Shown here: piece by piece, positions 23,232 to 50,237 of the stretch
Layout of the letters: each line of letters opens with the position of its first letter
How positions within the stretch are numbered: the first letter of the stretch is position 1
Source of the DNA: Syntrophorhabdaceae bacterium
GTDB lineage: Bacteria; Desulfobacterota; Syntrophorhabdia; Syntrophorhabdales; Syntrophorhabdaceae
Direction of reading: 5' to 3'
Assembly: GCA_963665295.1 (NCBI GenBank)
Contig: OY762209.1
Location: 480,001-544,000 of the forward strand
Length of the DNA stretch: 64,000 nucleotides
Position numbers and translations under genes: made by a program
Notes under the pieces: model-generated
The model's database searches: none
Told to the model about the DNA's origin: nothing
The model's input: only the letters and a program-made list of their open reading frames with translations

Positions 23232-23242
23232 GATGGCCCCAC

Positions 23243-23355
23243 ACAAAAAAAGACTCCGCCTGTTTCTTTGAAAACAAACGGAGCCAGGGTCGAAGGGTCA
23301 AAGCTGTGAGCCAAGGACTCAAAACTCAAAGAGCTACTTGCGACGAAGGAACACC
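23243..23355 (-). repeat. Conserved 3' tail of DGR-target-like genes, with hairpin (copy 1; others at ~24023-24145 and ~24571-24640)
   Basis: Shared CGCAAGTAGCTCTTT..AG..CTTGG..CTTTGACCCTT..; copies 1 and 2 also share the GTTTGTTTTCAAA.AAACAGGCG hairpin. Confidence 0.75.
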
Positions 23356-23840
23356 CACCGGTTGTCAGCATACCAGAAGCTGCCAGAATAGCCATAACTG
23401 CCGCCGAGACACAGGCCGTCGTCATCGTGTACGACGCTGGACCGCGTCAGGCAGCCATCGGAGTCCATGATGCTGTCCATGGCTATAAAAAGAGCTTCTC
23501 TTTTTGGTTGTTCGGAATATTGGAGACGCAGTTGTGGGCCGACTTCAGCGGGACAGATGTCCCCAATCTTCTTGATGCGCCTATCGATGTTGCGGTAATA
23601 TGCGCCATCTTTAAATCCGAGTTCGGCGGTAGTTGCCGTCATCAGCTCGACTTCTTTTTGTTCCCGGCTCAGGGTGACTTTGCTCAAAATGTCGCCCGCC
23701 CATTCGCCGACTTTGAATCCGTTTTTCTCCAGAGCTTCGCGGAGTTCGGGAATCGATTTGTAGATTCCCAGCTTGATGGTCTTCCAGGTTGGAAGATCGC
23801 AAATGCTTTCATACAGTCCACTTTCGACCTTTCTAATCAT
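23334..23840 (-). CDS. DGR-target-like protein (C-type-lectin-like variable C-terminus), copy A
   Basis: GGAGG RBS before ATG 23840; CPAEVGPQLRLQY core; C-terminus DSDG...HDDDGLCL...FWYADNRWVFLRRK resembles CPR DGR variable proteins. Confidence 0.7.
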   Translation of the reverse strand: MIRKVESGLYESICDLPTWKTIKLGIYKSIPELREALEKNGFKVGEWAGDILSKVTLSREQKEVELMTATTAELGFKDGAYYRNIDRRIKKIGDICPAEVGPQLRLQYSEQPKREALFIAMDSIMDSDGCLTRSSVVHDDDGLCLGGSYGYSGSFWYADNRWVFLRRK

Positions 23841-24022
23841 GACAAACCTCCTCTTAATTGAGATATGCCGCTTCATAGCAGCCTTGGAGGAACTTCGAGA
23901 AATTCCCTGAAGGATGCCATGAAATTGTGAGGAGTATGACATAAAGGGGCTTTCCTGAAGCTGAACCCCCTATTGTACACCTAATCCATATTTTGTCAGT
24001 ATCTGAAATCAAAGAGCATTTG

Positions 24023-24155
24023 CACAAGAAAAGCTACGCCTGTTTTTTGAAAACAAACAGTGCCAAGCTCCAAGGTTCCAAGGGTCAAAGTTGAAACCAA
24101 GAATCCGAGGCTCAAAGAGCGTACTCGCAGAGAAGGAATACCATCGTTTTTGTCA
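24023..24155 (-). pseudogene. Remnant 3' end of a third DGR-target-like gene (or template-repeat fragment)
   Basis: GACAAAAACGATGGTATTCCTTCTCTGCGAGTACGCTCTTTGAG aligns with the DNRWVFLRRK* end and its downstream tail; no upstream coding part remains. Confidence 0.6.
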
Positions 24156-24218
24156 AAACCGATTCGTGCGGTATAATTAGAATATCTTTCAACAATCCTA
24201 ATTATTGGTACCAAAAAT

Positions 24219-24569
24219 ATGGAGAAGAAGATATTGGCTGTCTCTGCGATAGTTATTATGCTCTTGGTTGGAGGTTTTTTGACGTTTATGTTTGTGAAAA
24301 TTTCTGATCAGAAAAATGAAAATATTTCCAATCCAAATCGGCCTTTGCTGGTTGAAGATTATTACGAAAATCTAAAGAATAAATGTAATGGTAATTCTTG
24401 TTGCATTTCCTCAGTTGATTCAATGAAAAGTGCAAGCGCAAAGTTGGCTGAGAATGAAACATGTCCGGATGGATCTGAAAAAGATATGCTCAAGTGTGAA
24501 GGGACTTATATTTGGTGCAAAACCTCAACTGTCTCTGGGAATGAGAATAATCATCAGGCTAACAACTAG
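24219..24569 (+). CDS. Small membrane-anchored Cys-rich protein
   Basis: N-terminal hydrophobic helix; C..SCC..S..M..CP.G..MLKC.G..WC pattern. Confidence 0.7.
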   Translation: MEKKILAVSAIVIMLLVGGFLTFMFVKISDQKNENISNPNRPLLVEDYYENLKNKCNGNSCCISSVDSMKSASAKLAENETCPDGSEKDMLKCEGTYIWCKTSTVSGNENNHQANN

Positions 24570-24614
24570 CGGAAAGGTTCAAGGTTGACGACCAAGAACC
24601 CGAGACTTAAAGAG

Positions 24615-25088
24615 CTACTTGCGGCGGCGAAGAAACACCCACCGGTAGTCACCAGTCCAGAAATCGCCCGGGTGACCAAGGCTGCCGTCGAGCCACAGAA
24701 CGCCGTCATCGTGCCCGACGCAGAACCGTCGCAGGCGGCCGCCGGAGCCCGAAATGGGGTTCATAGTAATGAAGTTCCGTTCATCCTTTGGCTGGTCCGG
24801 GTACTGGAGACGAAGTTGCGGCCCGACTTCAGCGGGACAAACATCGAATCCCAGCCCCTTAATACGCTTCTCGATGTCGCAGTAACGGGCTCCATCTTTG
24901 AAGCCGAGTTCGGCGATGGTAGCCGTCACCAGCTCGATTTCTCTTTCTTCGGGGCTCAGACTGACTTTGCTGAGAATGTCGTCCGCCCAGTTGCCGATTT
25001 TGAATCCGCCTTTGCTCAAAGCTTCGCGGAGTTCCGGAATCGACTTGTAGGTGCCGAGCCTAATAGGCTTCCAAGTGTTGAATATCAT
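24615..25088 (-). CDS. DGR-target-like protein, copy B
   Basis: Paralogue of 23334..23840; C-terminus GSGG...HDDGVLWL...FWTGDYRWVFLRRRK. Confidence 0.7.
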   Translation of the reverse strand: MIFNTWKPIRLGTYKSIPELREALSKGGFKIGNWADDILSKVSLSPEEREIELVTATIAELGFKDGARYCDIEKRIKGLGFDVCPAEVGPQLRLQYPDQPKDERNFITMNPISGSGGRLRRFCVGHDDGVLWLDGSLGHPGDFWTGDYRWVFLRRRK

Positions 25089-25122
25089 ATTTTTGATTTA
25101 TTTATTACACATCTTCACACAA

Positions 25123-25527
25123 TCACTGCTGTTCGTCTTGTTTTTCAACGATAATCTCAGTGGCATTCTTTGCGGAATCATATTTCACAGTGGCACTTCC
25201 GCCCAGCTTAACGCCTCCGAGACCGACAGCTTTCTTTTCTCCGTCTTCCATTGAATAGACCGGTGTTTCAGCACTGATTTTGAATTGAGTCTTGTCAGTT
25301 CCGATGTAGATGTAGTCTTGATCCATGCTGACGACCAGTCCTCTTGTTTCATTGGTATTTGCTGGTTCTTTATCAGGGGCAGCCTGATCCGCCTGACTGT
25401 TTACTGCTACACTCTGCGTGGTGGAACTCTGGGGAACGGTATTCACCTTTTTAGCTTTTCTCATAATATAGATTCCGCTCAGGGCCAGAATGGCAATGAT
25501 TGCGATGATGACGATTGTTTTTTTCAT
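25123..25527 (-). CDS. Membrane-anchored hypothetical protein (OB-fold/DUF5666-like)
   Basis: N-terminal TM helix, low-complexity linker, G.VVSMD....I...FKIS.ETPVY...VKLGG.ATVKY pattern. Confidence 0.6.
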   Translation of the reverse strand: MKKTIVIIAIIAILALSGIYIMRKAKKVNTVPQSSTTQSVAVNSQADQAAPDKEPANTNETRGLVVSMDQDYIYIGTDKTQFKISAETPVYSMEDGEKKAVGLGGVKLGGSATVKYDSAKNATEIIVEKQDEQQ

Positions 25528-25576
25528 ATTTGTTTGTTTTATTAATTTATTATTACTCTTATTTTAAGCTGGATTA

Positions 25577-28500
25577 TTAGGGAGCCACCTCCTTCCAATT
25601 CATGTTCCTATATCTGTCTGCATAACAACGAGCTGTTTCCCCTCCGCATACTCCGCTGCAGGTCCAGGTCCAAGACAATTTCGATGTTTGAGGATTGGAG
25701 CTTCCGCCAAAACTTGAACATAGTTCTGAGTCTGGTTTTGTTTTCCATTCTTTGTGCGTAGCATCACCGCATTGTCCGTCAACTGAAGGCTGGAGACCAT
25801 GGCAATCTTGGGTTTGTGGAGAAGTAGGACAAGCAACGCCTCCGTATTGTGGATAAACAGAAACTGTTATGTCTCTGGTTTGTGTTCCAGTTTGATTAGC
25901 ACAAAGAGCAGTACAAGTGTGCCAGTTTGACCAGGTATATTGGCAGTCGATAGGACACTGTCCTACCCAAGTGCTATGAGGAGGGACGCAATTGTTAAGA
26001 TCATACAGGGAAGCCCACCCTGTCTCGGTGCAAGTCGGAAGTCCTCCCCAATACCAGTTTGGCTGTTTAGTTCCGGTACAAGAACTCACTGAATTTGATT
26101 TATATATTCCGTTTCCATTGATGTTGTAGCAATAGTTTCCGGAATCACTGCAATCGAGAGGACATTGACCAACCCGAACGTTTCTTGGTAATTCACAGCT
26201 ATTCAAATCGACTTGGCTTGCCCATCCTGTCTCGGTGCAAGTCGGAAGCCCTCCCCAATACCAGTTTGGCTGTTTGGTTCCAGTGCAAGAACTCACTGAA
26301 TTTGATTTATATACTCCTCCGCTCGCGCAATATTTTCCCGAGTCGCTGCAGTTAAGGGGGCATTGTCCTACCCAGACGTTTCTATTATTAGGCACGACAC
26401 ACCGATTACTATCAATTTGAGTCATCCAGCCGGTTTCGGAACAGCTTGGAAGAGGAGGTGACCAATTTGATTGTTTGATTCCGGTGCAGCTCACACACGC
26501 ATCTGATTTATATACTCCGCTATTAGCGCAATGACTGCCAGAGTCATTGCAGTTCATTGGAGATTTTGTTCCCCAGGTAAGTTTTCCCTCATTTCTGCAA
26601 TTTCCTGTTTGAGAAAATTGCTGGCAAGTCAGATAATCTGAAGCAGGAGGAGACCAAGACCAACTAGAATTCTCTTTGCAAGTTCCTCCACAACCATCGG
26701 ATTCTCCCCCACAAGTATTAGAAGGACAATATGGGGTGCAAGTTACCGTATATGGTATTTTTATTGGCGTATAGGTAAACTTGGTATTTGGACACAAGTT
26801 TTGCGTTCCAAGTCCATAAAAATTTACATAATATGTACCGGGAGTCGTGGAAACATTTCCAGTTGAAGATCCGAATTCGCTCTTTACATTAGCGCATGCT
26901 TGTTGTGAATTCTTTATCGTACATGTTCCATTGACACATTTAGCACAAGCAACGGCGCCGTTATTGCCGTAATTTGACTTGAGACAATCCGGTCTAACGC
27001 TGGCAGGCCTGCAATCTCCCAAACGGCTAGTGTTTATATTACTATAATTAGGAAAATCCGTTAGAACTCCTGCATGAGTATACCCATTGCAGTAACCAGA
27101 CCCTTGTTCTATCCTTCCGTAAACCGTCAAAGAAGCGCCAGGGCTTAGATTAGTGCTGCTAAGATTCACAGTATATGTAGCATTGTCAGCATAAAGCGTT
27201 TCTGCTTTCGCTTCGCTGAAAAACAAGAGAAAGCTTACAGTAGAAACGACAAATAGGACGGCGATACTACTTCGGTTATTTTTCTTCTTTTTAATGATAA
27301 AAACTATCACAACAATCAGAATTAAAGCTGACAATCCAAAAACAAGAAGCGTCGCTGATTTTCCAGAAGATTCATTTAAGCTGTTTTTTTCGTCTGCTAC
27401 AGGACCTCCCCCACCCATAAAATTAAACTCGACTTCATCCAAAACTTTTCCATCGCTATCTTTAATCTGAGCGAAAATGTGAGGATTTTGACAATCAGAA
27501 GTAATCGGAATAGTTAAGTCTTCTATATTTTTCGCCAGATCTAATTCTTTGCTGAAATCATCAGAGCAAGAATTTCCTTTTGAACTTTTGGTTGAAACAC
27601 TGAAAAAAAGCTCGCCAGTTCGAATGCTTTCCCCTCTAGAGATAAAGGAAGAATTAGGCGGTGAATTCCAATAAAGAAACACCTTGGCATTTTCTCCTTT
27701 TTGATAATAATTTTTGTCTACTCTTAGATTTTTGATAGTAACACTTTTCCCTTTTGTAATATACTGAAACGATAACTCGTTAGAAACCTTCCGAACCGAA
27801 TTACTTTTATCCAAGAATGACAACTTTATTCCATATACTTGAGGAATAGAAATGTTCTTAATAACAAAGCTTTTTTCATTCTCTCCCGGATTCAAGATAA
27901 TGGCGTCTTGCTTTTCGTTTTCTATTATCTTTCCAAAAGTGGAATATAGATAGGTTTCAAAATATGGCACTACAGATATGGAATTCTTGAAGTTATTTTT
28001 AATTCTGCACTCCAGGGACAGTTCTTCTTCTTGGCTGACGCTTATTGCATAGCCCAAGGGATATTTGTTTCCATCACCTTCCACCAGAAAATTGCAGGCA
28101 TCAGGAGCAATTTCGACATATTCTCCATTTCCGGTGAGATGAATCTCTCCTGCCATATTCATTCCAAGAGACAAACCTTTGTCGTTTTCGGAAATTATCC
28201 ATACTTGATAGTTCCCATTCAAATAATCCGGAATTGTGTAGGCTATTTCTTTGTGAATTGTTTCATTTTGTCCCAGATTTACAGTTTCTTCATAGACTTC
28301 TTCATCAACAATGCCGGAACTTTCTTTTTCAACAAGCTGGACGGCATATTTAACATTTGGCTGAATTTCTTCCCTGTTGGACAAGTCAAAAGACAGTTTC
28401 ATCTCATTGCCGTTTTGAGAGACTATTTTTGCATCGTAGATATTGACAGTAGCCACGATAACAGCTTCACTTTTTTCTGCTTGTTTTGAATCAGCATTAT

Positions 28501-28618
28501 CAAATAAAATGGGGTTTTCTTCCTGCGCTTTGGCCTCAAATCCTGAGAGAAACAGGAAAAGTGAGGCAGAGACGAAGAATGTCGTCTTTAAAAAATGCGC
28601 ACGGTTTCGGTTTTTCAT
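25577..28618 (-). CDS. Large cell-surface protein: signal peptide, beta-rich ectodomain, two TM segments, Cys-rich repeats, TSP1-like domain
   Basis: Signal ending AKA; hydrophobic segments around aa 425-470; three CSDSG..C...YKS...CTGTKQPNW repeats; DCQYTWSNWHTCTALC..GTQTR..GGVACP; ends NWKEVAP. Confidence 0.8.
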   Translation of the reverse strand: MKNRNRAHFLKTTFFVSASLFLFLSGFEAKAQEENPILFDNADSKQAEKSEAVIVATVNIYDAKIVSQNGNEMKLSFDLSNREEIQPNVKYAVQLVEKESSGIVDEEVYEETVNLGQNETIHKEIAYTIPDYLNGNYQVWIISENDKGLSLGMNMAGEIHLTGNGEYVEIAPDACNFLVEGDGNKYPLGYAISVSQEEELSLECRIKNNFKNSISVVPYFETYLYSTFGKIIENEKQDAIILNPGENEKSFVIKNISIPQVYGIKLSFLDKSNSVRKVSNELSFQYITKGKSVTIKNLRVDKNYYQKGENAKVFLYWNSPPNSSFISRGESIRTGELFFSVSTKSSKGNSCSDDFSKELDLAKNIEDLTIPITSDCQNPHIFAQIKDSDGKVLDEVEFNFMGGGGPVADEKNSLNESSGKSATLLVFGLSALILIVVIVFIIKKKKNNRSSIAVLFVVSTVSFLLFFSEAKAETLYADNATYTVNLSSTNLSPGASLTVYGRIEQGSGYCNGYTHAGVLTDFPNYSNINTSRLGDCRPASVRPDCLKSNYGNNGAVACAKCVNGTCTIKNSQQACANVKSEFGSSTGNVSTTPGTYYVNFYGLGTQNLCPNTKFTYTPIKIPYTVTCTPYCPSNTCGGESDGCGGTCKENSSWSWSPPASDYLTCQQFSQTGNCRNEGKLTWGTKSPMNCNDSGSHCANSGVYKSDACVSCTGIKQSNWSPPLPSCSETGWMTQIDSNRCVVPNNRNVWVGQCPLNCSDSGKYCASGGVYKSNSVSSCTGTKQPNWYWGGLPTCTETGWASQVDLNSCELPRNVRVGQCPLDCSDSGNYCYNINGNGIYKSNSVSSCTGTKQPNWYWGGLPTCTETGWASLYDLNNCVPPHSTWVGQCPIDCQYTWSNWHTCTALCANQTGTQTRDITVSVYPQYGGVACPTSPQTQDCHGLQPSVDGQCGDATHKEWKTKPDSELCSSFGGSSNPQTSKLSWTWTCSGVCGGETARCYADRYRNMNWKEVAP

Positions 28619-28681
28619 ATTGTTGTTTTTGATTAACTTGTTAACTTATTTAAAAACTAAAGAAATTTCTTGAAAATGGTT

Positions 28682-37600: not shown

Positions 37601-40600
37601 ATTGCCAGCTACGGATAATAAAGCTTGGGTCGGCGCAGTCGTCCCAATTCCGACGTTGCCGCTTGTAAAAATGGTACTGTACCCGCTACGCGGCGTTATG
37701 TCCAAATTAGCTGTTGTATCGTTATACCTCAAAGATGCAGCATAAGTTGTAGCGTTAGTATATGGACCAAGATATAGAACAGCATCGCCCGGACCCGTAC
37801 CGCCCGGCCGCCCAATCAATACTGAAGTGTCTACCGCCAACTTCGCCCCCGGCGCCGTTGTTCCAATCCCGACGTTGTACGAAGTTGAATCCGGATAAAG
37901 ATTTGATCCAGTGAGAGTCCAAGCTCCTCCACTACTTGAGATATCTGACCATGATGCATTTCCGGAAGCATCAGTGGTGAGATAATATCCAGCCGATGCT
38001 CCATTGGTCATTGTGAGAGTGGTGGTATATGTTCTTCCGTTGACTTGCAAATTTCCGCTGGATGGGTTGGTTGTTCCGATTCCGACGTTGCCATTAGTTG
38101 GAGCTAGCAGAACATTAGTCCCATTAACCTGCCATCTATAAACTAAGTTTGTCTGATCGTATAAACCAAAAGTTGAACCGCCTATTTGAAAATTATAAGT
38201 ATTAGCTGAGGATCTTTGGAACTGTAAGGCATTGGATGTGCTTGAATATATATCTAGCATCGATGCTGGATTCGTCGTTCCGATTCCGACGTTGCCGCCA
38301 CTGGGTTGCAGTAACATATTGTAGGCGGTCGCGGTGCCGTCGATGCGTTGCACTTGTTGGAAAACATCGCCGGTAGCCAAACCTCCAACTAACAAGCCAT
38401 GACCGGAACCGACGGTCACTCCAAGCGACCCTCCATAAACGCCCAGCGCCGGTATGGTGTCCGTGCCCGTTCGGCGGATGTCTAATTTACCGAGCGGGTT
38501 CGTTGTCCCAATCCCGACGTTGCCGTCTGTTTTTATAGTAACTTTTGCCTCTCCAATAACACTTCCGGTTCCAATCTCCAATCTGTCTCCATCTGAATTA
38601 TCCATTCCCAAATGCCAGTATTGAGTTGCATAAGCACCCAAGACATATAACGGATCTCCTGCGCTTGCGCCTCCCACAAAATTGATAATTCTGGAACCTG
38701 AACTAACATTGGTATTATCAGTATTCATCAAATATTCATCCAAGTTTCCACCAACACTTGCCTTGCGAACATCAAGTAATCCTACCGGTGCTGTCGTCCC
38801 GATGCCGACGTTACCGCCTTGAGTAATTCTCATTCTCTCATTAGCATCAGCGTAACCGCCAGTAAAGAGTCTCAATAAGCCTGCCGCATCCGAAGCGGCG
38901 ATGTTAATTCCTCCTGTTCCATTAGCACCAATTTGCATAGCGCCTGCTTGATAAGCCCCATTGGTTGTGTATCCTGAACCATAATTATCTATAAACGCCG
39001 AGCTTGCATTTGTCTGTAAAAGCATTCTGCTATACGCCGCATTGCCAGTGTTTGGATTTTCAATTCCTAGTTCTGCTACAGAATTGGCGTTTTTCCAAAG
39101 ATAAAACATTTGCGCTGGCGCTGTCGTCCCGATGCCGACATTGCCGCCACTGGTAATTCTCATCGCTTCAGCCAAACTTGAAGTTGAATGTGTAGAAAAT
39201 GTCAAAGCAAAAGGATAACTTCCCCAAGCCTCTCTTACCGCTTTTATCTCGGCCCCGCTTGCACCAGTTTCTTGATAAAATTGAAGTGCCTGCGCTTGAC
39301 TGTAGTCACCGCTTGTTTGATTGCCATTTTGAATAGCGATATTGCCGTTCGCAACTTGTAACTTCGCCCCCGGCGCCGTCGTTCCGATTCCGACGTTGCC
39401 GTTATTTACATTTAGACCATTAACCCCTCCAGTAATTAACGAAAGAATATTAGCTCCGGCAGAACTCATACCAGTGTCCTCATCTCCTACAAATGAAAAG
39501 ACGGGATTAGTCGCCGAAGGTGCCTCACCTAAAAGGGTCGGGTAGGTAGCAATGGAACTGCCAAAGTAAGGATTACTGAATTTCCACATATCCGTTCCGG
39601 CAATTGAAATACGGAAATTATCATCGCTAGCTTCAAATATTCCGCTATCACCATCGCCGAATGCTAAAGTGGGAGTTGTCTGCAACGCTCCTGGTGTTTG
39701 ATTGAGATGTAATAATCCATTTGGACTGGTGGTCCCAATTCCGACTTTTCCGTAGGTATTTATGCGCATGGCTTCATGGAAACCCACGCCACCTTCATAG
39801 GTACTGAAAGCTAGTTGACCACTGTTGGCATAAAGCTCTCTGTAAGATTCAATTTTTGCCAAGTTATAGTTGCTGGAGGTTATATTGGTAAATAGTAATG
39901 TACCAGTAACAGAACTGTTTGAAGTTTGGTTGGCATGAATTGTAAGTGTTGGTTGCGTATCAAAAATTTCCAATTTTGAGGTTGGTCCCGTCGTCCCGAT
40001 CCCGACGTTGTACGAAGTTGAATCCGGATAAAGATTTGATCCAGTGAGAGTCCAAGCTCCTCCACTACTTGAGATATCTGACCATGATGCATTTCCGGAA
40101 GCATCAGTGGTAAGATAATATCCAGCCGATGCTCCATTGGTCATTGTGAGAGTGGTGGTATATGTTCTTCCGTTGACTTGCAAATTTCCGCTGGATGGGT
40201 TGGTCGTCCCAATTCCGACGTTGCCACTTTGGTTAATAACCATCACATCATTTCCACTAGATGCTCTAAATTCGAGTGCGCTACCTGTGGAAAGTTGATT
40301 TGTTCCTATGCCCCATCGGTATAAAGAATTGTCATAGAATGTAAGAGCAGCAGAACCACCGTTTGTAGCGGTTTCAATTCTAAGTCCAGTATCTCCGGTA
40401 CTGTTATATAAATGAAGTTTGACAGCCGGACTTGTCGTCCCGATTCCAACGTTGCCGCCGGTTATTGTGGTATTACCACCATTGTTTTCGAGAGCGATGC
40501 CTTTCGCTGAAATTGCCAAGTTCTCCCAAGCCCCACCCGTCCGGTCATACGACTGAATCTGTGAGCGAGTATTGCTTGTGGCATACCACATTTCAAGCCC

Positions 40601-42622
40601 CTTGCCCGCGGGCCAAGTCACCACGTCTCCGCGAACAAATAAACTTGAAAGTGCGTTTACTTGTCCATTAACTTCCAGCTTCGCCCCTGGACTCGTCGTC
40701 CCGATGCCGACGTTGCCGGCACTATTTACAACCATTGCCGATGTACCTGACCAATTCCCCAACCTCACACCATTAGTATCAGTCCATAATCCATAACCAG
40801 TAGCTTGTCCTGTAAGTTTAATTTGATTAGCCCCCGTTGAATATACTTCCAGTTTCCCGCCCGGACTTGTCGTCCCAATGCCGACGTTTCCGATTTCTGT
40901 TGCCAAAACCACTTGTCCTGCAGCTGCCAATGATTTGTAATTTCCTGCTCCGCCTCTAGTTCCCAACGCTAAAACATATCCATCAAAGCCAGGCCTACCT
41001 GCTTGATAGTCAGCTGCACTATTTCCTGTATTCACAATCAAATATGGAGCAGCTGCCCCGATACTATTCCTTACTGCAAAAACATTTGCCGCATCATTTC
41101 CTGTTCCTTCCACAGTTAATTTATAAACCGGACTTGTCGTCCCAATTCCCACGTTGCCACTCCTTTGTAGATACAACACTGTGTCATTTATATCGGCGTT
41201 GCTACTATCGGCTGTATTATCTAACATGAAAGCCAGATTCCCACGATTATAAGACCCGCCAATATCGTCATACACTCCAACTCTCACCTTTGAATAATTT
41301 TGGCCTCGCACCGAATTAAAGTTTAGGGCCTGTCCCAATCCTACGGCACCAGTCGTATCAGTCGTAATAGCAATATTTCCACCCTGAACCTCTAATTTTT
41401 GATACGGCACCGTCGCCCCGATACCCACATTGCCATTCTTATCAATTACCATTTTAGCAGTTCCTAAAGAATCTCCACTATTTGTATAAAATTCTAACTG
41501 ACTTTGTAGTGCAGATGGATCGGCTTGAGTAATCTGCGACCTAATTAAACCTATCGCGGTTTGAGAACTCCAAATACCTGCTCCCGTCTTAAACTGCAAA
41601 TCAGCATAATTCGTAATAGCTTCCGTGGTGGTTTGCAATCTAATTGTTGAACCGGTAGTAGCGGTTACCTCAAGATTTACTCGTGGATCAATCGTTCCGA
41701 TACCAACGTTGCCTTCTATTATCATTCCATTATCAGGAGCGTTGTTTCCTACTGCAAAACCGCTACCAACAGCTATTGAACCGTCATCACCAAACAAAAC
41801 ATTTTTGTCCCCATTGCCATCTTTAAGATAAAGACCGCCGGAATCTACAATGTTGAAATCGTAAAATTTATTGGCATAAGCCGTATTGGTTATTCTTAAT
41901 GTTGGTGAACCGTTTTTTGTTATTTCCAATAAAGCTCCCGGAGCCGTCGTCCCAATTCCCACATTTCCTCCGTCAATCACACTCATCACCGAAGTTGTGC
42001 TATCGAAAAGTTCCAGAATCTTTCCGGTTCCCGATTGCTGAACGCGAAGAGCCGTTCCAGTCCCACCACCGGATCCGTAGACGATGCTCGAAGCACTGTA
42101 TGTTCCCGATGCCGGATTGTAATTTATGTTTGATGCATCATGAGTGGTATCAATGTTGTCAACGTCAAGATATCCGTTGCCGATGAGATTCAGTGAATTG
42201 AAAGAATAGGGAGTAGCACCGATTTTTTTTCTCGGACTCATTTCCGCATCAGACCCAACTGTCACCCCGAGCCAGTAGCTGGCAGAAAAATCAAGATTAA
42301 GCGTGTTGTCTCCGCTTTCACCAAGTAAAGTATTAAAAATTCCGCTGACAGTTGAGATTGATTTCGCCGTTGGAGTACCACAAGTTCCTCTCGCTGTCCA
42401 AACACAGTTTCCGCCACTCACCGCATCATACAAAGTGAGTTTGATGTTATAAGCCGCGTCCGGAACAACCACTCCGCTGCCATTGGTAAGCTTTCCTTGA
42501 TAACTGATTTCTTTCGTTATGGCAGCTTTAGAGTTTGAAACTGCACCAAAAACAAGACATACTGTGACTATCACAGATACAATGACTCTAAGCAATTTTT
42601 GTTTTTCTTTTAGCGTGATCAT
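28682..42622 (-). CDS. Giant (4646 aa) fibre/adhesin-like protein with dozens of GNVGIGTT repeats and a peptidase S74 intramolecular chaperone domain
   Basis: Signal peptide followed by ISYQGKLT N-domain; recurring GNVGIGTT.P; SDKNLKN...LNPVYFRYK...GVMAQDVQ..IPEAV...INAIKEL (S74); coiled coil; C-terminal GSAVIKAG...FNWLII domain. Confidence 0.9.
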   Translation of the reverse strand: MITLKEKQKLLRVIVSVIVTVCLVFGAVSNSKAAITKEISYQGKLTNGSGVVVPDAAYNIKLTLYDAVSGGNCVWTARGTCGTPTAKSISTVSGIFNTLLGESGDNTLNLDFSASYWLGVTVGSDAEMSPRKKIGATPYSFNSLNLIGNGYLDVDNIDTTHDASNINYNPASGTYSASSIVYGSGGGTGTALRVQQSGTGKILELFDSTTSVMSVIDGGNVGIGTTAPGALLEITKNGSPTLRITNTAYANKFYDFNIVDSGGLYLKDGNGDKNVLFGDDGSIAVGSGFAVGNNAPDNGMIIEGNVGIGTIDPRVNLEVTATTGSTIRLQTTTEAITNYADLQFKTGAGIWSSQTAIGLIRSQITQADPSALQSQLEFYTNSGDSLGTAKMVIDKNGNVGIGATVPYQKLEVQGGNIAITTDTTGAVGLGQALNFNSVRGQNYSKVRVGVYDDIGGSYNRGNLAFMLDNTADSSNADINDTVLYLQRSGNVGIGTTSPVYKLTVEGTGNDAANVFAVRNSIGAAAPYLIVNTGNSAADYQAGRPGFDGYVLALGTRGGAGNYKSLAAAGQVVLATEIGNVGIGTTSPGGKLEVYSTGANQIKLTGQATGYGLWTDTNGVRLGNWSGTSAMVVNSAGNVGIGTTSPGAKLEVNGQVNALSSLFVRGDVVTWPAGKGLEMWYATSNTRSQIQSYDRTGGAWENLAISAKGIALENNGGNTTITGGNVGIGTTSPAVKLHLYNSTGDTGLRIETATNGGSAALTFYDNSLYRWGIGTNQLSTGSALEFRASSGNDVMVINQSGNVGIGTTNPSSGNLQVNGRTYTTTLTMTNGASAGYYLTTDASGNASWSDISSSGGAWTLTGSNLYPDSTSYNVGIGTTGPTSKLEIFDTQPTLTIHANQTSNSSVTGTLLFTNITSSNYNLAKIESYRELYANSGQLAFSTYEGGVGFHEAMRINTYGKVGIGTTSPNGLLHLNQTPGALQTTPTLAFGDGDSGIFEASDDNFRISIAGTDMWKFSNPYFGSSIATYPTLLGEAPSATNPVFSFVGDEDTGMSSAGANILSLITGGVNGLNVNNGNVGIGTTAPGAKLQVANGNIAIQNGNQTSGDYSQAQALQFYQETGASGAEIKAVREAWGSYPFALTFSTHSTSSLAEAMRITSGGNVGIGTTAPAQMFYLWKNANSVAELGIENPNTGNAAYSRMLLQTNASSAFIDNYGSGYTTNGAYQAGAMQIGANGTGGINIAASDAAGLLRLFTGGYADANERMRITQGGNVGIGTTAPVGLLDVRKASVGGNLDEYLMNTDNTNVSSGSRIINFVGGASAGDPLYVLGAYATQYWHLGMDNSDGDRLEIGTGSVIGEAKVTIKTDGNVGIGTTNPLGKLDIRRTGTDTIPALGVYGGSLGVTVGSGHGLLVGGLATGDVFQQVQRIDGTATAYNMLLQPSGGNVGIGTTNPASMLDIYSSTSNALQFQRSSANTYNFQIGGSTFGLYDQTNLVYRWQVNGTNVLLAPTNGNVGIGTTNPSSGNLQVNGRTYTTTLTMTNGASAGYYLTTDASGNASWSDISSSGGAWTLTGSNLYPDSTSYNVGIGTTAPGAKLAVDTSVLIGRPGGTGPGDAVLYLGPYTNATTYAASLRYNDTTANLDITPRSGYSTIFTSGNVGIGTTAPTQALLSVAGNIAATQNITLRGAGLTAGYYGRVAHDDNNMTLSTSGGTGHILLSPAGNVGIGTTSPSNTLHVIGSIRDTTGYYVTGAGSMIVGTDSNDIRLTSVGDLELGANSTITMFLQSGGNVGIGTTAPVSTLQVSTPTNDAITEGLTVGSSATSGLHAYFDNSGQTNAIFSNGYDSATAKMTFRMRDTGTDVNAVTILGNGNVGIGTTNPSSGNLQVNGRTYTTTLTMTNGASAGYYLTTDASGNASWSDISSSGGAWTLTGSNLYPDSTSYNVGIGTTGPTSKLEIFDTQPTLTIHANQTSNSSVTGTLLFTNITSSNYNLAKIESYRELYANSGQLAFSTYEGGVGFHEAMRINTYGKVGIGTTSPNGLLHLNQTPGALQTTPTLAFGDGDSGIFEASDDNFRISIAGTDMWKFSNPYFGSSIATYPTLLGEAPSATNPVFSFVGDEDTGMSSAGANILSLITGGVNGLNVNNGNVGIGTTSPGAPLAVEKTGTGGIRIASFISPATTGMDLGLYIMARNDVNGLTANHIDSVNAANTVTKPLYINASGANTIFGGNVGIGTTSPGSKLTIYDSGNAGVISFKRGGVTETGDISYSNDNAHGALFVGNSQYDLYLRTNGSSRMFINSSGNVGIGTVSPTMNLVVNGAQEIYGYNNNYTYTSFANGLYISPTNTASPTEGLGFWTSNQGHTMIGNVYDSASARLYFNMRASSASNGITAMTILGSGNVGIGTIAPGKLFDVRGDAQFGSSSTVGTIYFGVGSNEYITSTDAGGNGFKFYQDGYAGYQILRQNSATTDPAHIFSSVTNGNEYMRITQGGNVGIGTTSPGTLLNVYSLSTGNPDVLRLQSAWGAAADGASLQYRINNGTDNWTLARIKTANQSGYGGQLIFEVNAGAGSPVDTTTERMRIDKNGNVGIGTTSPQAYLEVANSAGPWIRLNDTDANSGAIEQLGNDLYLSTSSSAGIIYFKNNHTGSTRPSGSGDTMMVINDGNVGIGTTNPVTKLDVRSSFWLGSSGSAGIYMSPSGSRFSTTVAFMETQGTGIPFAINTNEAQPLIFGTNSSERIRITSAGNVGIGTTNPLYSLQISNATADIRLVSTAGTNRSNIQFANTGGTVYLGQESSTGGGIITGASPYAAVFGHGGAYPLQLATNNAVAMTILSGGNVGIGTTSPGAKLEVSSTAGTLLKLTNTTNSDFYNFIANASPGLTLTVGGTTAMTFDRSSNNIVMVPTAGNVGIGTTNPNAKLTVNGNLSFGERNVVTHYIGHTAGNVFGGNSAWQAFATDGADEWITFGTLRNGISGGERVRIDPSGSVGIGTTSPGGKLEVYDTGNPKLYVTTATAGGAPAITLKGAGNTNTPYMEWQLIPSSTDQASYMTANYNGATAVTNILVLKGNGNVGIGTTAPSGKLEVYSNSSSLSPHIISTNDLGIMSKLYTGRSGLASISGKTILENISGNEILLNPSGGNIGIGTTSPGQKLDVVSSIRTDSHMYIWDGSNNKVDMTYSASKGLINMYDNNNAQTVLIHTGGNSYFNGGNVGIGTTSPQVKLDVVGNSVYFSPDTAGKNTFMFTTGTANYGWMSIKADTTTAIKFNSNGDSYFNGGNVGIGTTTPQGKLDVGGVTGNYGQVGILSDSNSKALNLEENSGGESWQLGISSAGDLGFMDSNSAFSSSSVVIQDGGNVGIGTTSPGFMLTVVGAISSQEQFVIAGGSNRIVNNYGDADINWTTSGSNPDIYIRTNSAERMRITNGGNVGIGSTAPLSALDVATGMIYSHNTNGNASYGMTSAGSLYGAIGATTKTGTGGWGLGTMTSPGNASAMTPALSWTGDGYVGIGTTTPTSKLYVSGGYGGSTTKTYGGIDVWGKKGSYSGINFFDGSGTYESTLMVDADGATGMYIEGTGWQWYFSGGSLAVGTVPCASITGNGVGCSDVYVNTSGDTMTGNLQMSASGAIFLNGGTSYGVGVGTNGGNSAILDTINSTAGDTLELNYLAGTDVRIGDGSGQHNLHVDSGGLSVGYNVDLTAGYGVFAGNLGIGTTGPAVKLQIDGGMVYSPNTSGNASYGMTSLGSLYGAIGATTKTGTGGWALGTMTSPGNASAMTPVLSWTGDGNVGIGTTNPTVKLEVVGDVQSSPSTSTSQSIFFPNNGNHRGYIGKENSSGNYVFSSVPAYSLVISNYGETAPIMLGHNSPEVTILNGGYVGIGTTLPQGKLDVGGVTGNYGQVGILSDSTGKALNLEENSGGESWQLGINSAGDLGFMDSNSAFSSSSVVIQDGGNVGIGTTDIGTNLEVDGANQVLSGIGNTQLILRDTATQAKDTGGSIIFSGALNYAGIKGGKWNSTGGNYASYLAFFTRANGVAGLAEQMRIDPSGNVGIGTTGPAVKLQIDGGMVYSPNTPGNASYGMTSAGSLYGAIGATTKTGTGGWGLGTMTSPGNASAMTPALSWTGDGYVGIGTTVPTYLLDVNGNARATDIYTHDGGVHSYSDKNLKNVEGSFSRGLDEIASLNPVYFRYKDNSKLGITDDQEVIGVMAQDVQKLIPEAVGSQNGYLTLTQGPIFYTMINAIKELNLKQISQKTEITSLNSLSKNTDSEISDINFEITEKYSILTGQINTLEERIENDPYQMQIAGLEDKVNSLEEKIASLQNPASQAQTITQTKEITFQEFETTDYITSTLTNLQASNNTLSGDCTTPDAYNEITINPPGMDVSGYDIQDGHLIYNLYIEDPASITDFATELGNQRDTKEVQWNTANHQILQSGWNEIRLNISEGIKTGEIDWTSLNYMRVYFKLSGISEVKIGDVKLEVTETINKVADVNSESVDQVISESVNQMNSQQTLINQLQSQLADIKAQTDANTSLLLALNPKTLIYLDPSGNLTLPEATVTAKSVEAEVVKTKSIVLGSSDQRTDSGQVADPSSGSAVIKAGDDKVIINTTQATQNAKIFVTLTGSSGGESIYVNKDDIDDGKSFTVRLDGEPYKDDIKFNWLIIH
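36186..40224. repeat. Near-identical internal duplications in the giant gene: 36186-37020 vs 39390-40224, third partial copy 37869-38091
   Basis: Direct comparison; the offset of 3204 bp preserves frame, and the protein block NPSSGNLQVNGRTY...GLNVNNGNVG is repeated. Confidence 0.9.
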
Positions 42623-42639
42623 TTACGGTGTGATTTATT

Positions 42640-43092
42640 TCAATTTTTCTTTTTGACCTCCACCGATTTCACTTTCTCCGGAAAATCGGCATAGAGGGTT
42701 ATGTGCCCGTCATTGTCCTCAGAGATGGTGTACTTATTTCTGATCGTCTCGGATCTTTGGTCGTCTCTGATCTTCCAGAAGATCACTCCCCCGACGAGAA
42801 CCAAAAGGAATGCTACCCCCAAGAGTGCGAGTCGCCATTTCAGGCTGAGTGGTTGCTTGGCCTCTTCGGGAGGAATCTCTACATTGAATCTTTGCTGGTA
42901 CTCCTGTTTGGCGATAGCCGCTTGCCGAATGTAATCTTTTAACGCACTCTCAGTGGTGTAGATTTTGCCCCCGACTTTTTCACCGTACATTTTTCCCTTG
43001 CGTACCAAGAGCCCGAGGTATTCTTGGCTATAGGGAGATAACTTTACCGCCTCACGTAGTGAGATCAATTTTGGTTGTTGCTCGTGTGACAT
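42640..43092 (-). CDS. HTH-domain protein with one TM helix, upstream of the giant gene
   Basis: LISLREAVKLSPYSQEYLGLLVRKGKMYGEKVGGKIYTT (MerR/excisionase-like HTH), followed by a hydrophobic helix. Confidence 0.75.
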   Translation of the reverse strand: MSHEQQPKLISLREAVKLSPYSQEYLGLLVRKGKMYGEKVGGKIYTTESALKDYIRQAAIAKQEYQQRFNVEIPPEEAKQPLSLKWRLALLGVAFLLVLVGGVIFWKIRDDQRSETIRNKYTISEDNDGHITLYADFPEKVKSVEVKKKN

Positions 43093-43197
43093 ATTTGTTT
43101 TTGTTCAACGAGTTTAAAATGCAGCTATATCAAACAGATGGTAGATATGATATCGGACATGTATGGGATACGTATCGGGACGTACCCGACGACCATA

Positions 43198-43321
43198 CAA
43201 AAAAGGACAACCATCTACTAAGATTGTCCAGTCGCCAAACTAGTCGCACTGTTCGAAATGGTTGCCCATCGCTGAGTACGACTAATCGCTAAGCTGCTAA
43301 GCTTGCTAATTTGGCGACTGG
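43198..43321 (-). promoter_or_regulatory. Candidate structured 5' leader plus intrinsic terminator for the HTH-giant protein operon
   Basis: Stem CCAGTCGCCAAATTAG/CTAGTTTGGCGACTGG, followed by GGACAATC...GGTTGTCC-TTTTTT on the minus strand. Confidence 0.5.
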
Positions 43322-43540
43322 AATTTTTCTAATTTAATATTATTATTCTTTTGGATTCTCGTCAAACAGTGAGCCAAATGTCGACTCTGTGGATAACTTA
43401 AAAAGATCGCCGAAGGGTTCTGGCGGACTCCGATGGCGGCCTGGAACGGTTCGGCGCCAATGTCTCTACTGACGCTGTACAGGCAGATACAAAAAGAGGC
43501 AGAGACTTGCGACATGCAAATCTCTGCCTTTCAGCCAGCT

Positions 43541-44284
43541 TCAATAGTAATGGATCTCTGCCGGCTGGCAATCAAGGTCCGGAAAACTTGTAGCCAACTT
43601 CCCGTTTCCCTTTTTTTCGTCTTCGACCAGCTTTGAATACTGCGATCCGGTCAAACTGACTTTGACGAGGTACTTACCGTAGAAATGAATCTCCCCGTTA
43701 AGGTTCATATTGCCGATCCTGACCTTCACCTTATCTCCTGAAACTCCAACAGGCGACGAAGTCTTGCTCCAATCGAGTTCAATGAAGCCGACATATTTTC
43801 CGCCAGTTTTCAAGAACTCAACCGAGGAACTATTTATGATAGCTGAATATACTGCCGGTATTGTCTCTATGAAGTCCATGTAATAGAGAACTCCCGTCGC
43901 GTTGTCCTCCCAATATATTCTCACTACCATTTCAGCTCCCGCTTGACTTTCCGGCAACCTAAGCGACTTGCTCAGAATACCGCCCCCTTGAAGATCGGTC
44001 ACTACATCCTCTTTAGAAACTGAGACATCTTGTCCTTGAGCAAACTCGCCATTGAAATACACCTCCCACCTTTTCAGGTTGAAGACTTTATCGATCGTAA
44101 AAGTCACCACTCTCCTATCCTCGTTATTGCCGTAAGGATAGAAGAAATACGTGGTATCCAATGAAGGGCATTCTCCTCCACGCAAACAATGCCCAGGCGC
44201 TGCACTTTCAGGAACCTCTTGGGCGCCCGCAAAATTAAACAACAGCGACATAAAGCAAAATGCAAAAACCGCCTTCTTCAGCAT
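43541..44284 (-). CDS. Secreted hypothetical protein
   Basis: AGGAGG RBS; signal peptide MLKKAVFAFCFMSLLFNFAGA. Confidence 0.75.
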   Translation of the reverse strand: MLKKAVFAFCFMSLLFNFAGAQEVPESAAPGHCLRGGECPSLDTTYFFYPYGNNEDRRVVTFTIDKVFNLKRWEVYFNGEFAQGQDVSVSKEDVVTDLQGGGILSKSLRLPESQAGAEMVVRIYWEDNATGVLYYMDFIETIPAVYSAIINSSSVEFLKTGGKYVGFIELDWSKTSSPVGVSGDKVKVRIGNMNLNGEIHFYGKYLVKVSLTGSQYSKLVEDEKKGNGKLATSFPDLDCQPAEIHYY

Positions 44285-44480
44285 GACAAACCTCCTTGTA
44301 TAATCAATTTTGTTAGAGTGGCAACGTCACTCTTTTGTCATTCTATCTAATCAGCAGTTATCCCTGTAATATCGATTAGTTGTCAAATAGCTGACTGTCC
44401 AGTGTATAATACAATTGAAATCTGTCAAGTGGCTTGGAGAGAGAACTCCAATTTTGTTGGGGATTTGAATAGAATGATGT

Positions 44481-44783
44481 TTAAGCGTTGCGTTTGGCAA
44501 GGGTTCGAGGAAAAACTTTTTCTTCCAACCTCTCCACTCTATGCTCCAAATCCTTATGATCAAAGACGTGGACCCGGCGGTGTTCCACTTCTGCTTTAAG
44601 GTCCTCAAGCTTATCTTCAATTATGTCAAATCTCCTATCAACTGCGTCAAATCTTTCATTAACTGCCTCAAATCTCTTGTCTACTACCTGGAATTTTTTG
44701 TCCATCTTCTCGTTTATTTCATTAAAACCATTGGCCACCATTCCGGCCAAATCCTCCAAAGTTATTTCTTTGTTTTGTCCCAT
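44481..44783 (-). CDS. Small coiled-coil protein (DKRFEAV repeats)
   Basis: ITLEDLAGMVANGF followed by heptad repeats and LEHRVERLE. Confidence 0.75.
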   Translation of the reverse strand: MGQNKEITLEDLAGMVANGFNEINEKMDKKFQVVDKRFEAVNERFDAVDRRFDIIEDKLEDLKAEVEHRRVHVFDHKDLEHRVERLEEKVFPRTLAKRNA

Positions 44784-44996
44784 ATGAAGTGTTTTAAGTT
44801 ATGAATAACATTACTATTTTATCATAATCATACATCTCGTCAATTTTCCTATTCATCGCCACACTCATCGCTTCTTTTTCTAATGCCTTCTTCGGCAACA
44901 ATCCCCTTCTTTTGTAATTCTGTGAGTCCTCTAAACTGAAGAAATCCGAACGGAAGTTATTTTGAAAATTTATTGGGACTAAAAGGAGGTGTTCCC

Positions 44997-45143
44997 ATGG
45001 ATTACGAGAAGATGTCCAATGAAGAGCTTGACCAATTGATCTTACAAATGTTTTCCGGACGATATTTCAAGGAGGTGACGGACGACAACCGCGAAACAGC
45101 AATAGCCTTTCTGAAGTTCTTCGAAGAAGAGAAAGGAGGTTAA
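44997..45143 (+). CDS. Small hypothetical protein (48 aa)
   Basis: AAAGGAGGT RBS; manual translation MDYEKMSNEELDQLILQMFSGRYFKEVTDDNRETAIAFLKFFEEEKGG. Confidence 0.6.
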   Translation: MDYEKMSNEELDQLILQMFSGRYFKEVTDDNRETAIAFLKFFEEEKGG

Positions 45144-45145
45144 AG

Positions 45146-45403
45146 ATGTACAGTCCGAAGATTAACGAAGACCTAATCCCCTATCTCTACCGGCTCAGCC
45201 GGCATCTCGGACAGCCAATGACCAGAACGGTGAACTCGATCCTCAAGGAGGCGTTACTCCATTTCAAGGACACCGGAATATTCTCGGAAATCGAAGCGGA
45301 AGAGAAAGCTCTCGAAGAGCTGACCGCCTACTTCAGAAAAGTCACGAGTGGCAGGAAGAAGAAGACCGCCCAGGTTATCGAGCTTCTCAGAAAAATCGCA
45401 TAG
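45146..45403 (+). CDS. Small ribbon-helix-helix-like hypothetical protein
   Basis: RBS; MYSPKINEDLIPYLYRLSRHLGQPMTRTVNSILKEAL. Confidence 0.65.
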   Translation: MYSPKINEDLIPYLYRLSRHLGQPMTRTVNSILKEALLHFKDTGIFSEIEAEEKALEELTAYFRKVTSGRKKKTAQVIELLRKIA

Positions 45404-45834
45404 GAGGTGTGAGGTGATCACTATCACCAGGGAAGAAGTGGAAAGAATCTTTTCGATCTCCACTCATCAAGTGGAAGTGGTGGAGGCGCTTTACCGGCTC
45501 GCGTTCCCAGATTACGACGAGATCATGAAGCTTGACGGTTTCCCGGAAGCGGGAGAGAAACTCTCCAAGCTCATCTGGAACAAGTTTTTTGATTTCGATG
45601 AAAAGCATCACCCGAACGTGATGAAGGGCGGAAGATGGATGAACAACGGCTTCTCAACCAACAAGAAACTTGGCGATTGGGAAGTTGATGTTGCCGGAGT
45701 GAAGAAGATTATGAAGGAGAAAGAGAGTCCGCTTTTCCGGAATTTCTATCGCTGTGCGCAGGACGGTACGCGGTGACAGGAAGAAGAAGACCGCCCAGGT
45801 TGTCCAATCTCTCAACAAAATCGCATAGGAGGTG
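45348..45834 (+). repeat. ~62 bp direct repeats at 45348-45409 and 45773-45834 flanking one gene
   Basis: GTG.CAGGAAGAAGAAGACCGCCCAGGTT...CTCA..AAAATCGCATAGGAGGTG in both copies. Confidence 0.85.
45414..45776 (+). CDS. Hypothetical protein
   Basis: GTG start after GGAGGTG; ORF track 45348..45776. Confidence 0.65.
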   Translation: MITITREEVERIFSISTHQVEVVEALYRLAFPDYDEIMKLDGFPEAGEKLSKLIWNKFFDFDEKHHPNVMKGGRWMNNGFSTNKKLGDWEVDVAGVKKIMKEKESPLFRNFYRCAQDGTR

Positions 45835-45838
45835 AATC

Positions 45839-46057
45839 ATGAAAAAGCGCCGCCGTCAGAAGCCCAAGAAACTCATATGGATATTGGGCGCAGTATCCTT
45901 ATTTCTTCTCGCCGTTATCGCGTTCGGTACGACGATGATATCGTACTCGCTACACGAGATTCTTGTAACCGCTCAGGAAAATATCGCTTCATACGAACCC
46001 GAACACAAGGAACCCACCAAATTCAAAAGCATAGGAGGAATGAAATGGAAGAAATGA
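45839..46057 (+). CDS. Small membrane protein
   Basis: AGGAGGTG RBS; basic N-terminus followed by a hydrophobic helix. Confidence 0.55.
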   Translation: MKKRRRQKPKKLIWILGAVSLFLLAVIAFGTTMISYSLHEILVTAQENIASYEPEHKEPTKFKSIGGMKWKK

Positions 46058-46782: not shown

Positions 46783-46812
46783 TCCGATTTCTCGAAATTT
46801 AAGGAGGCCGTC

Positions 46813-47220: not shown

Positions 47221-47229
47221 GAAAACAAT

Positions 47230-47424: not shown

Positions 47425-47433
47425 GAGGAAGAG

Positions 47434-47883: not shown

Positions 47884-47895
47884 TATTTTTGATTT

Positions 47896-50222: not shown

Positions 50223-50237
50223 CAATACTCGCCGTTA

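Follow-up and report, generated by a model that had tools for sequence, protein, structure and literature searches.

How a run of surface-protein genes of Patescibacteria type (Candidate Phyla Radiation, CPR) came to lie in the chromosome of a bacterium from another phylum is the question raised by the locus analyzed here. The window, a stretch of 64,000 nucleotides, represents positions 480001-544000 of one 5,508,164-bp Syntrophorhabdaceae contig (G000:C1; 54.7% GC) and covers most of an integrative element at a tRNA gene. Within this element, a first-pass annotation made from the sequence alone had proposed a CPR-like block of about 21 kb. We propose, with a probability of about 0.74, that this block is DNA of a Moranbacteria-like Patescibacterium that moved recently into the Syntrophorhabdaceae chromosome as cargo of the tRNA-targeting element. 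The possibility that the host itself belongs to the CPR was checked. The 5.51-Mb host genome is 98% complete with 2.4% contamination and shares one GTDB family with a relative (G255), an element protein of which is identical to P0008 (NCBI name: Syntrophorhabdaceae bacterium); given this placement with the Syntrophorhabdaceae, the host is not a CPR bacterium. The host class was represented by 96 genomes in our collection, 95 of which were searched as relatives of G000. The term Moranbacteria order refers to the order of genome G041, whose record is titled Moraniibacteriota.

The block contained nine open reading frames (ORFs) within 23334-44783, eight of them on the minus strand. All nine were intact, which fits a recent arrival as well as selection. 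Every motif named in the first-pass annotation (YSQEYL, ISYQGKL, GNVGIGTT/S74, Cys-rich/WKEVAP, EDLA, and RWVF) was recovered at its place among the following features, which include a helix-turn-helix (HTH) gene and targets of diversity-generating retroelements (DGRs).

23334..23942, minus strand: RWVF gene 1, of an orphan DGR-target family, which probably starts near 23840, downstream of a GGAGG site
23990..24140, minus strand: remnant of a third RWVF copy, consisting of the 3' end and a terminator
24219..24569, plus strand: 116-aa membrane-anchored Cys-rich protein with its own sigma70-like promoter (24150-24177) and Moranbacteria-like codon usage
24615..25088, minus strand: RWVF gene 2, orphan DGR-target family
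25123..25527, minus strand: 134-aa N-terminally anchored protein; weak Patescibacteria match (42 bits), no host match
25577..28618, minus strand: 1013-aa surface protein with N-terminal ectodomain, transmembrane segment, Cys-rich repeats, TSP1-like domain, and WKEVAP end
28682..42622, minus strand: 4646-aa fibre adhesin with signal peptide, ISYQGKL domain, GIGT repeats, S74 chaperone, coiled coil, and C-terminal domain
42640..43092, minus strand: YSQEYL HTH and transmembrane protein, the conserved partner upstream of the giant adhesin
43541..44284, minus strand: 247-aa secreted protein with a GGAGG site and its own promoter and terminator
44481..44783, minus strand: EDLA coiled-coil protein, found in three of five Moranbacteria-order genomes (best identity 46%)
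44816..44843, minus strand: sigma70-like promoter of the EDLA gene (10/12 consensus, extended -10, -35 at 44843), the last recognizable donor-side feature

A gene-by-gene comparison, which the annotation had suggested, bore out the proposed affinity: seven of the nine ORFs scored higher against Patescibacteria loci (0.73 Mb) than against the masked host. Homologues of the 1013-aa protein, whose Pfam TSP1_spondin match lay below the cut-off, occurred in 68 of 151 Moranbacteria-order genomes, with 43% identity and E 2e-105 for the best; of the 17 homologues from databases, one was named Ca. Moranbacteria, one "bacterium", and the rest carried no taxon. The RWVF family was present in 21 of 151 Moranbacteria-order genomes and in none of the 95 host-class relatives, and the first 1000 residues of the giant adhesin, whose N-terminus was 54% identical to a protein of G140, matched only one of these relatives (the G255 fibre). 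The YSQEYL protein had matches in 54 of 201 Moranbacteria-order genomes, six of them full length at 31-41% identity; its top Atlas clusters were Moraniibacteriota/Minisyncoccota, and its closest relatives (61-68% identity) lay on short contigs. In six of eight fetched Moranbacteria-order loci, the YSQEYL gene stood immediately before an ISYQG giant, the giant being two genes away in one of the other loci and another large protein following in the last. Read by eye, this tandem was chromosomal, beside glmS, leuS, atp, and rpoB. No conservation of gene order was found for the other seven block genes, and searches of five Patescibacteria genomes for the 116-aa ORF and of the Atlas for the 247-aa protein (best score 0.77) returned no homologue of the former and no relative placing the origin of the latter. 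Within the 5.5-Mb host genome, YSQEYL, EDLA.M, and SYQG[KR]L each occurred once, all in the block, and G[NK]VGIGT occurred 36 times inside the block versus twice outside. A second, short GNVGIGT-containing gene was located at G000:C1:715659-716204, where the surrounding GC content was normal for the host.

These distributions bear on a reading in which the surface genes are passed around on elements in many phyla and merely look CPR-like, with no epibiont needed. The annotation had treated the YSQEYL gene as a Parcubacteria type, but the motif alone is not CPR-specific. Among 36 genome loci with the motif, 34 were examined, and in 24 of them it formed a C-terminal domain in proteins of archaea, Chloroflexota, and Deltaproteobacteria, which ruled it out as a CPR diagnostic; the others comprised one fragment and nine N-terminal occurrences (eight labelled Patescibacteria, one unlabelled). 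From a motif, we take the 24 proteins to be Fic-like, and the YSQEYL-type HTH would then form the C-terminal domain in a Fic-like family of wide distribution (L028-L043 and others). The breadth of this domain, the S74 fibres of Bdellovibrio, the two unplaced ORFs, and the generic defence systems that the elements also gather all speak for a shared pool. Conserved chromosomal gene order and high prevalence in the Moranbacteria order, near-absence from the 95 host relatives, the sole taxon named among the 1013-aa homologues, and the donor-type promoter and terminator at the block ends speak against it, and we consider a shared pool distinctly improbable. By its sequence affinities, the block is thus identified as putative DNA of a Moranbacteria-like Patescibacterium.

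Composition gave a second line of evidence. The DNA had been described as AT-rich by eye, which was accurate for the block (about 44% GC) relative to the host (54.7%) and the right arm of the element (about 48-55%) but not relative to the defence genes on its left (39-51%). Since these left genes have a similar GC content, GC does not delimit the block, and it was discarded as a marker. Tetranucleotide and codon usage are the signal that sets the block apart. The tetranucleotide correlation with the genome was lowest over the block (r 0.09-0.37 in 5-kb windows, against a genome first percentile of 0.32). A codon classifier, built on 123 ORFs from Moranbacteria-order loci and 123 low-GC host ORFs with held-out accuracies of 95% and 92%, called six consecutive genes (23334-42622) Moranbacteria-like with a switch at 23.3 kb, while 18 of 19 ORFs left of the block and 15 of 18 ORFs of the right arm were negative.

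The block is enclosed by the arms of the integrative element, whose parts are as follows.

1..62669: in-window part of the integrated element (whole element 68 kb, genome positions 474678-542669, beginning 5.3 kb left of the window)
892..23231: left-arm defence cargo, comprising AbiEi/AbiEii, type III restriction-modification, DrmD-like helicase, SIR2-HerA, TmtA-like (Tiamat), and a prokaryotic Argonaute (pAgo) pair (PADLOC, Pfam)
20323-23231: Argonaute-associated restriction endonuclease protein and class I pAgo, the end of the left-arm cargo
45146..57617, plus strand: right arm, encoding an 85-aa protein, DUF932, RadC, a 224-aa protein, Dam, NYN, an E2/ThiF pair, an ATPase, and Replic_Relax
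47896-48570, plus strand: 224-aa winged-HTH/nuclease-like core protein
54806-56302, plus strand: coupling-protein-like ATPase (TrwB_AAD_bind/DUF87 matches)
56250-57155, plus strand: Replic_Relax protein
58006-58347, 59976-60218, and 62140-62583, plus strand: tRNA-targeting tyrosine integrase in three pieces
62596..62669, minus strand: tRNA-Arg(TCG), the integration site

A 46-bp direct repeat (45 identical) of the tRNA-Arg 3' end was found at genome position 474678 and at window position 62593. Together with the adjacent tyrosine integrase (split here, intact in relative G019) and patchy presence among relatives, it gives the locus the features of a tRNA-integrated island. The left end, outside the window, carries a 255-aa gene with a DnaG-like primase fold (Foldseek E 7e-11), an RuvC-like gene, an HTH gene, and two convergent XerD-like integrases. 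The integrase beside the tRNA is interrupted by two insertion sequences (IS), ISNCY (58519-59880) and IS1634 (60367-62061; correctly recognized in the flank at first pass), of which the host chromosome contains 6 and 11 additional copies, respectively. Because these IS broke the integrase, this copy of the element is fixed in place and cannot self-excise, and their host copies indicate that the element has lived in the chromosome. A Pfam search of the 41 window ORFs detected no mating-pore genes, and from its gene content the element is probably an integrative mobilizable element (IME). The model of the 224-aa core protein (pLDDT 92) combined a winged HTH with a weakly nuclease-like half: the best VIA scores were Z 7.1 to winged-HTH folds and 6.3 to a restriction-nuclease subunit (root mean square deviation 3.8, 125 aligned residues). 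Neither a plasmid search nor Foldseek (E<=0.001) gave a match for the protein, comparing its profile with that of the Replic_Relax ORF gave a probability of 0.6, and 2 of 51 members of the 224-aa family were weak Replic_Relax matches.

A Patescibacteria-like block does lie at 23334..44800, as annotated, and its boundaries were refined to about 23232-23244 and 44845-44895.

23232..23285, minus strand: left junction, where the intrinsic terminator (stem 23285-23252) that closes the last block gene comes within about 20 bp of the pAgo stop at 23231
44870..45000, plus strand: right junction and arm-end leader of the element, GGCAAC..TCCCC..CTT..TAAACTG..AAAAGGAGGTG

The EDLA promoter lies 30-50 bp from this leader, which was common to 8 of 12 element arm ends compared by eye and whose left edge marks the end of homology with sister elements. 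The longest words shared by the two junction zones were 6-7 nt, and the junction sequences had no other copy in the genome. Junction microhomology and cassette repeats were thereby ruled out; likewise, the junctions share no repeat of the attC-like kind that bounds cargo in an integron or cassette array. A search of 40 relatives for an empty site by DNA returned only a 113-bp match for 19800-25600.

The same junctions bear on the simplest objection, that assembly joined sequence of a co-occurring Patescibacterium into the host contig. Five public runs from two studies contained 40000-49500, and four of them were compared over 30000-49999. The right junction, for which read support had been requested at first pass, was bridged by a single 18,196-nt contig in each of X1 (study P1) and X3 (study P2), with no differing letter over 40175-49999 and a flat depth of 26.6 and 13.4, respectively (interior contigs 28-36 and 9-21). 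In X5, a short contig also bridged this junction (388 of 568 letters aligned). X4 and X5 shared the region partially (0.68 and 0.49, with patchy cover), and no empty element was seen. The metagenome-assembled origin of the genome and two block contigs of X5 that were deeper than its junction contig (identical 1212-nt contig, depth 65; 781-nt contig with two differences, depth 109; junction contig, 16.8) would suit a chimera with a related organism present; because summed depths give no copy number, however, the deeper contigs of X4 and X5 are only a lead to a donor-like population. Bridging at flat depth in two studies, the single-copy junction sequences, a break exactly at an arm end conserved in sister elements, and three independently assembled relatives with similar cargo make a chimeric assembly highly implausible.

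Related elements were detected in 9 of the 95 host-class relatives (85-aa ORF in five, primase-fold gene in seven, nine combined) and in none of three genomes of the same genus as G000. Both arms lay on one contig in five relatives (G019, G021, G029, G255, and G293), whereas the elements of G024, G028, G270, and G282 were too incomplete for scoring of cargo and stand outside this count. Attachment (att) repeats at tRNA-Arg or tRNA-SeC were found in G019, G021, and G255 and in degenerate form in G293. Three of the five readable elements carried different Patescibacteria-type cargo between the same arms, one was ambiguous (G021), and one could not be assigned (G029). The G019 cargo, behind a pAgo fragment, was a pair of genes that are also adjacent in Moranbacteria-order genomes, one encoding 172 aa (present in 24 of 151 of these genomes, 43% identity) and the other an 877-aa LamG protein; this element also has an EDLA-type gene, recognized by motif only. 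G255 carried a 1265-aa GIGT fibre, the one noted above as matching the giant N-terminus. The G293 element encoded a 1048-aa LamG protein (33% identity over 972 columns to the G140 gene upstream of YSQEYL) and a complete DGR with an Lcl_C target, Avd, template and variable repeats (TR/VR), and reverse transcriptase (RT) (L115:6849-9999). A metagenome contig (L147) placed a GIGT gene, at motif level, 1.2 kb from an element arm. Two alternatives had been offered at first pass, DNA exchange between episymbiont and host on an integrative element or a family of elements carrying CPR-like attachment machinery. An element family does exist and several members hold Patescibacteria-type DNA, but the piece differs from element to element, and therefore the family has no single conserved attachment machine.

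Several other features of this family were recorded. The right arm occurs twice in tandem in G021, each copy with its own cargo (L235-L236). A second variable slot lies between the convergent XerD-like genes (L001:15014-18474, L238:3248-13715, L110:1998-5354, and L234:8250-10194). Its content is a single gene in the present element, an 8-kb methylase block in G255, and a gene pair in G019; in G021 the slot is empty. A 142-bp repeat (92%) flanks the TmtA-like gene at 14596-14737 and 19793-19934; visual inspection shows a likeness to the right arm-end leader in inverted orientation, and one copy each is present in the G021 and G255 elements. Window positions 50418-54809 encode S-adenosylmethionine (SAM) decarboxylase, GNAT, Dam, NYN, and the Prok-E2_E/ThiF pair, none of which was seen in sister elements. 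Mu-like phage tail and baseplate genes adjoin the left att of the element (L001:5575-12380, by eye).

RWVF genes 1 and 2 were 66% identical. The C-terminus of gene 1 aligned with TR/VR regions of Moranbacteria-order DGRs, and 8 of 10 template AAY codons kept the third pyrimidine (by eye). Among 15 RWVF homologue loci in the Moranbacteria order, eight had an RT and seven an adenine-specific TR/VR pair. Neither the block nor the host genome yielded an RT, Avd, or template for these genes; both host RTs are group II-like or other by sequence, and an active DGR in the host was ruled out. By these alignments, the two RWVF genes belong to a DGR target family and are frozen here without RT or template. 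The giant adhesin is one intact frame of 4646 codons with G[NK]VGIGT repeats (36 by the strict pattern and 44 by a relaxed one, spaced at a median of 82 aa), a Pfam Peptidase_S74 domain at residues 4143-4201 with SDxxxK, and an 860-bp internal duplication of 97.7% identity. Its C-terminal part matched a Bdellovibrio mosaic adhesive trimer (MAT) fibre (8ond, E 2e-10; also 8oml and 8on4), so that in the donor it most likely formed a trimeric adhesive fibre. In the present host, we regard the block cargo as most likely a passenger, because the DGR targets have no RT, most starts lack a Shine-Dalgarno (SD) site in a host that uses them, and the fibre has no known route to the outer membrane.

A mechanism can be proposed from these features. 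An excised element circle would take foreign DNA into the slot beside the conserved arm-end leader by illegitimate recombination, as no repeat, IS, or att lies at the junctions, and would then re-integrate. Mobilization would be that of an IME, with a tyrosine integrase, primase-fold replication protein, coupling-protein-like ATPase, and Replic_Relax protein but no mating pore. Physical contact with Moranbacteria-like cells would provide the DNA, and the donor may have been an epibiont of the Syntrophorhabdaceae host; we propose that such cells, living attached to these hosts or lysing beside them, make Patescibacterial DNA a frequent substrate. The gene for the 224-aa core protein was found in none of 351 Patescibacteria genomes, and the transfer route is therefore one that we infer. 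The element core genes use strong SD sites, which precede 31% of host genes versus 4% of Moranbacteria-order genes. Because of this SD usage and the absence of the core from the Patescibacteria sample, we rank capture inside a colonized host cell above a route that takes the element through the epibiont and back, while giving capture slightly less than an even chance.

In the second route, which is compatible with the transfer itself and differs in where capture happens, the element enters Patescibacteria cells by competence or conjugation, integrates into the chromosome or a prophage or recombines with it, and returns, using a relaxase-less type IV secretion system (T4SS) as its pore. In the available text of PMC12102498, Patescibacteria T4SS are mostly without relaxase, and 103 genomes have acquired ones. 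In favour of this route, the element encodes a coupling-protein-like ATPase and Replic_Relax but no pore, the T4SS mostly have no relaxase, and binning of metagenome-assembled genomes (MAGs) loses islands. Two loci point the same way. The first, L196 (126-12838), reads from an SD-less rpsB, a short tsf, and a tRNA cluster into a serine recombinase (49% identical to a G029 element gene), a resolvase (64%), genes led by SD sites, and an ORF related to the 85-aa one, and may be a related non-CPR-type element in a Patescibacteria-like chromosome, a mirror case. The second, L270 (G313:C3:22127-23092), is an XerD-like gene of a Patescibacteria genome with 57% identity to a left-arm integrase beside a 16S rRNA-like region; being a lone gene, it was rejected as an element. 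In the other direction, besides the missing 224-aa gene and the SD usage, the RuvC-like gene had only weak matches in 3 of 301 Patescibacteria genomes (best 30%), and RpsB of L196 was 38-40% identical to four Patescibacteria versus 35% to the host. Such a round trip is possible, with a probability well below even. A distant module of type IV coupling protein, Replic_Relax, and RuvC genes on G041:C6, a contig of 55-60% GC that is maybe misbinned, was not used as support.

Viral records raised the further alternative that Patescibacteria-type DNA arrives in phage particles or that element-phage cointegrates package the element. In four IMG/VR records, core genes of the element were joined to terminase, portal, and capsid genes that were poor in SD sites. 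In a circular 43-kb record (G647; L225, L256-L258; 13549-19400), the core was accompanied by a tRNA-Arg-like att, and L283-L285 were similar fusions. SD sites preceded 6 of 8 core ORFs versus 3 of 50 others in G647, and 4 of 7 versus 0 of 13 in L283; both records had a tRNA-Arg-like att beside an integrase, and an attP-like arrangement was seen only in these two. Capsid relatives of the joined phages, however, were 24-30% identical and scattered across many phyla, giving no phage host, the window block had no phage genes (Pfam), and YSQEYL was absent from all 51 candidate viral contigs. Delivery by phage therefore appears improbable.

A broader scenario combines these routes: an undescribed element family would link Moranbacteria-like epibionts, and phages, with Syntrophorhabdaceae in a two-way shuttle, lending relaxase and coupling protein to the epibiont T4SS and returning adhesins and whole DGRs, and its record would identify syntrophic aromatic degraders as Moranbacteria hosts. 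We consider this scenario unlikely; if it is true, the returned adhesins and DGRs are possibly decoys or receptor blockers against further colonization.

Several points weigh against the proposed transfer of Moranbacteria-like DNA as element cargo. The taxonomic comparison set a Moranbacteria-order sample against the host class, two lineages only; the block has no marker gene, and with best identities to known relatives of 43-68% and no donor genome found, the donor and date are not established. Two ORFs, the 116-aa and the 247-aa one, could not be placed by homology, and both GIGT/S74 fibres and LamG proteins are found beyond Patescibacteria, for instance in Bdellovibrio. At the right-hand end of the block, three short genes fell on the host side of the codon classifier, which is not fully independent because its reference held homologous giants. 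Sequence support covers the right junction, the left one being known from assembly alone; X1-X3 may include the source sample, no library type is given for them in the records, and the two studies are both from 2023. The sister elements are known from MAG contigs, the G021 cargo matched at domain level only, the G029 candidate gave no match (0 of 5), and the five block motifs occurred in none of 20 long metagenome loci of more distant element relatives. A relaxase function of the 224-aa core protein is putative. With these points considered, we conclude that the transfer is real, recurrent, and cross-phylum and that it took place on a tRNA-targeted element.

Recurrent multi-gene transfer from one Patescibacteria order to one host class leads to a host prediction, namely Moranbacteria-like cells on Syntrophorhabdaceae. 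The cargo of resident islands thus provides a genome-mining route to Patescibacteria hosts, the element is a candidate vector crossing both lineages, and CPR-like genes in non-CPR MAGs are not necessarily contamination.

IMEs and defence islands typically have a tyrosine integrase at a tRNA 3' end with an att repeat, a coupling protein, no mating pore, and variable defence cargo. The present element resembles tRNA-targeted IMEs in its integrase at a tRNA with att, coupling-protein-like ATPase, Replic_Relax gene, missing pore, and defence cargo. It differs in that its core proteins (85-aa, 224-aa, and 255-aa) have no Pfam family at cut-off, its cargo is repeatedly Patescibacteria-derived, and its core is also fused to phage morphogenesis genes. 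The RWVF genes align with VR/TR regions of Patescibacteria DGRs but have no RT, Avd, or template; the G293 element holds a complete DGR with another target type. The giant shares with the Bdellovibrio fibres, described as mosaic adhesive trimers in the available text of Caulton et al. (2024; PMC10769870), a signal peptide, a beta-rich N-terminal domain, GIG-type loop repeats, and an S74 chaperone with SDxxxK, but is 4646 rather than about 1000 residues long, continues for about 450 residues after S74, and has a YSQEYL HTH gene in front. For its N-terminal domain, no solved structural relative was found, and homology to the conserved beta-rich domain of about 130 aa that comes after the signal peptide in MATs is putative.

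Patescibacteria have few known hosts, and the cargo of their T4SS is presented as an open question (PMC12102498, available text). In the literature outside subscription journals and supplements, no description was found of this element family or of Syntrophorhabdaceae islands containing Patescibacteria blocks of several genes. Among groundwater mobile genetic element modules, a few mix CPR and Nitrospirota associations, as far as the accessible part of that report indicates (PMC12023590). The closest comparison is with Gios et al. (2025; PMC12455944), whose accessible text describes transfer into Patescibacteria, mostly of single genes, and takes it as a pointer to host association, with one Desulfobacterota donor. 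Both cases involve cross-phylum transfer with Patescibacteria as a partner, whereas here a nine-gene, 21.6-kb block moved outward from Patescibacteria, on a defined element, and such movement occurred repeatedly.

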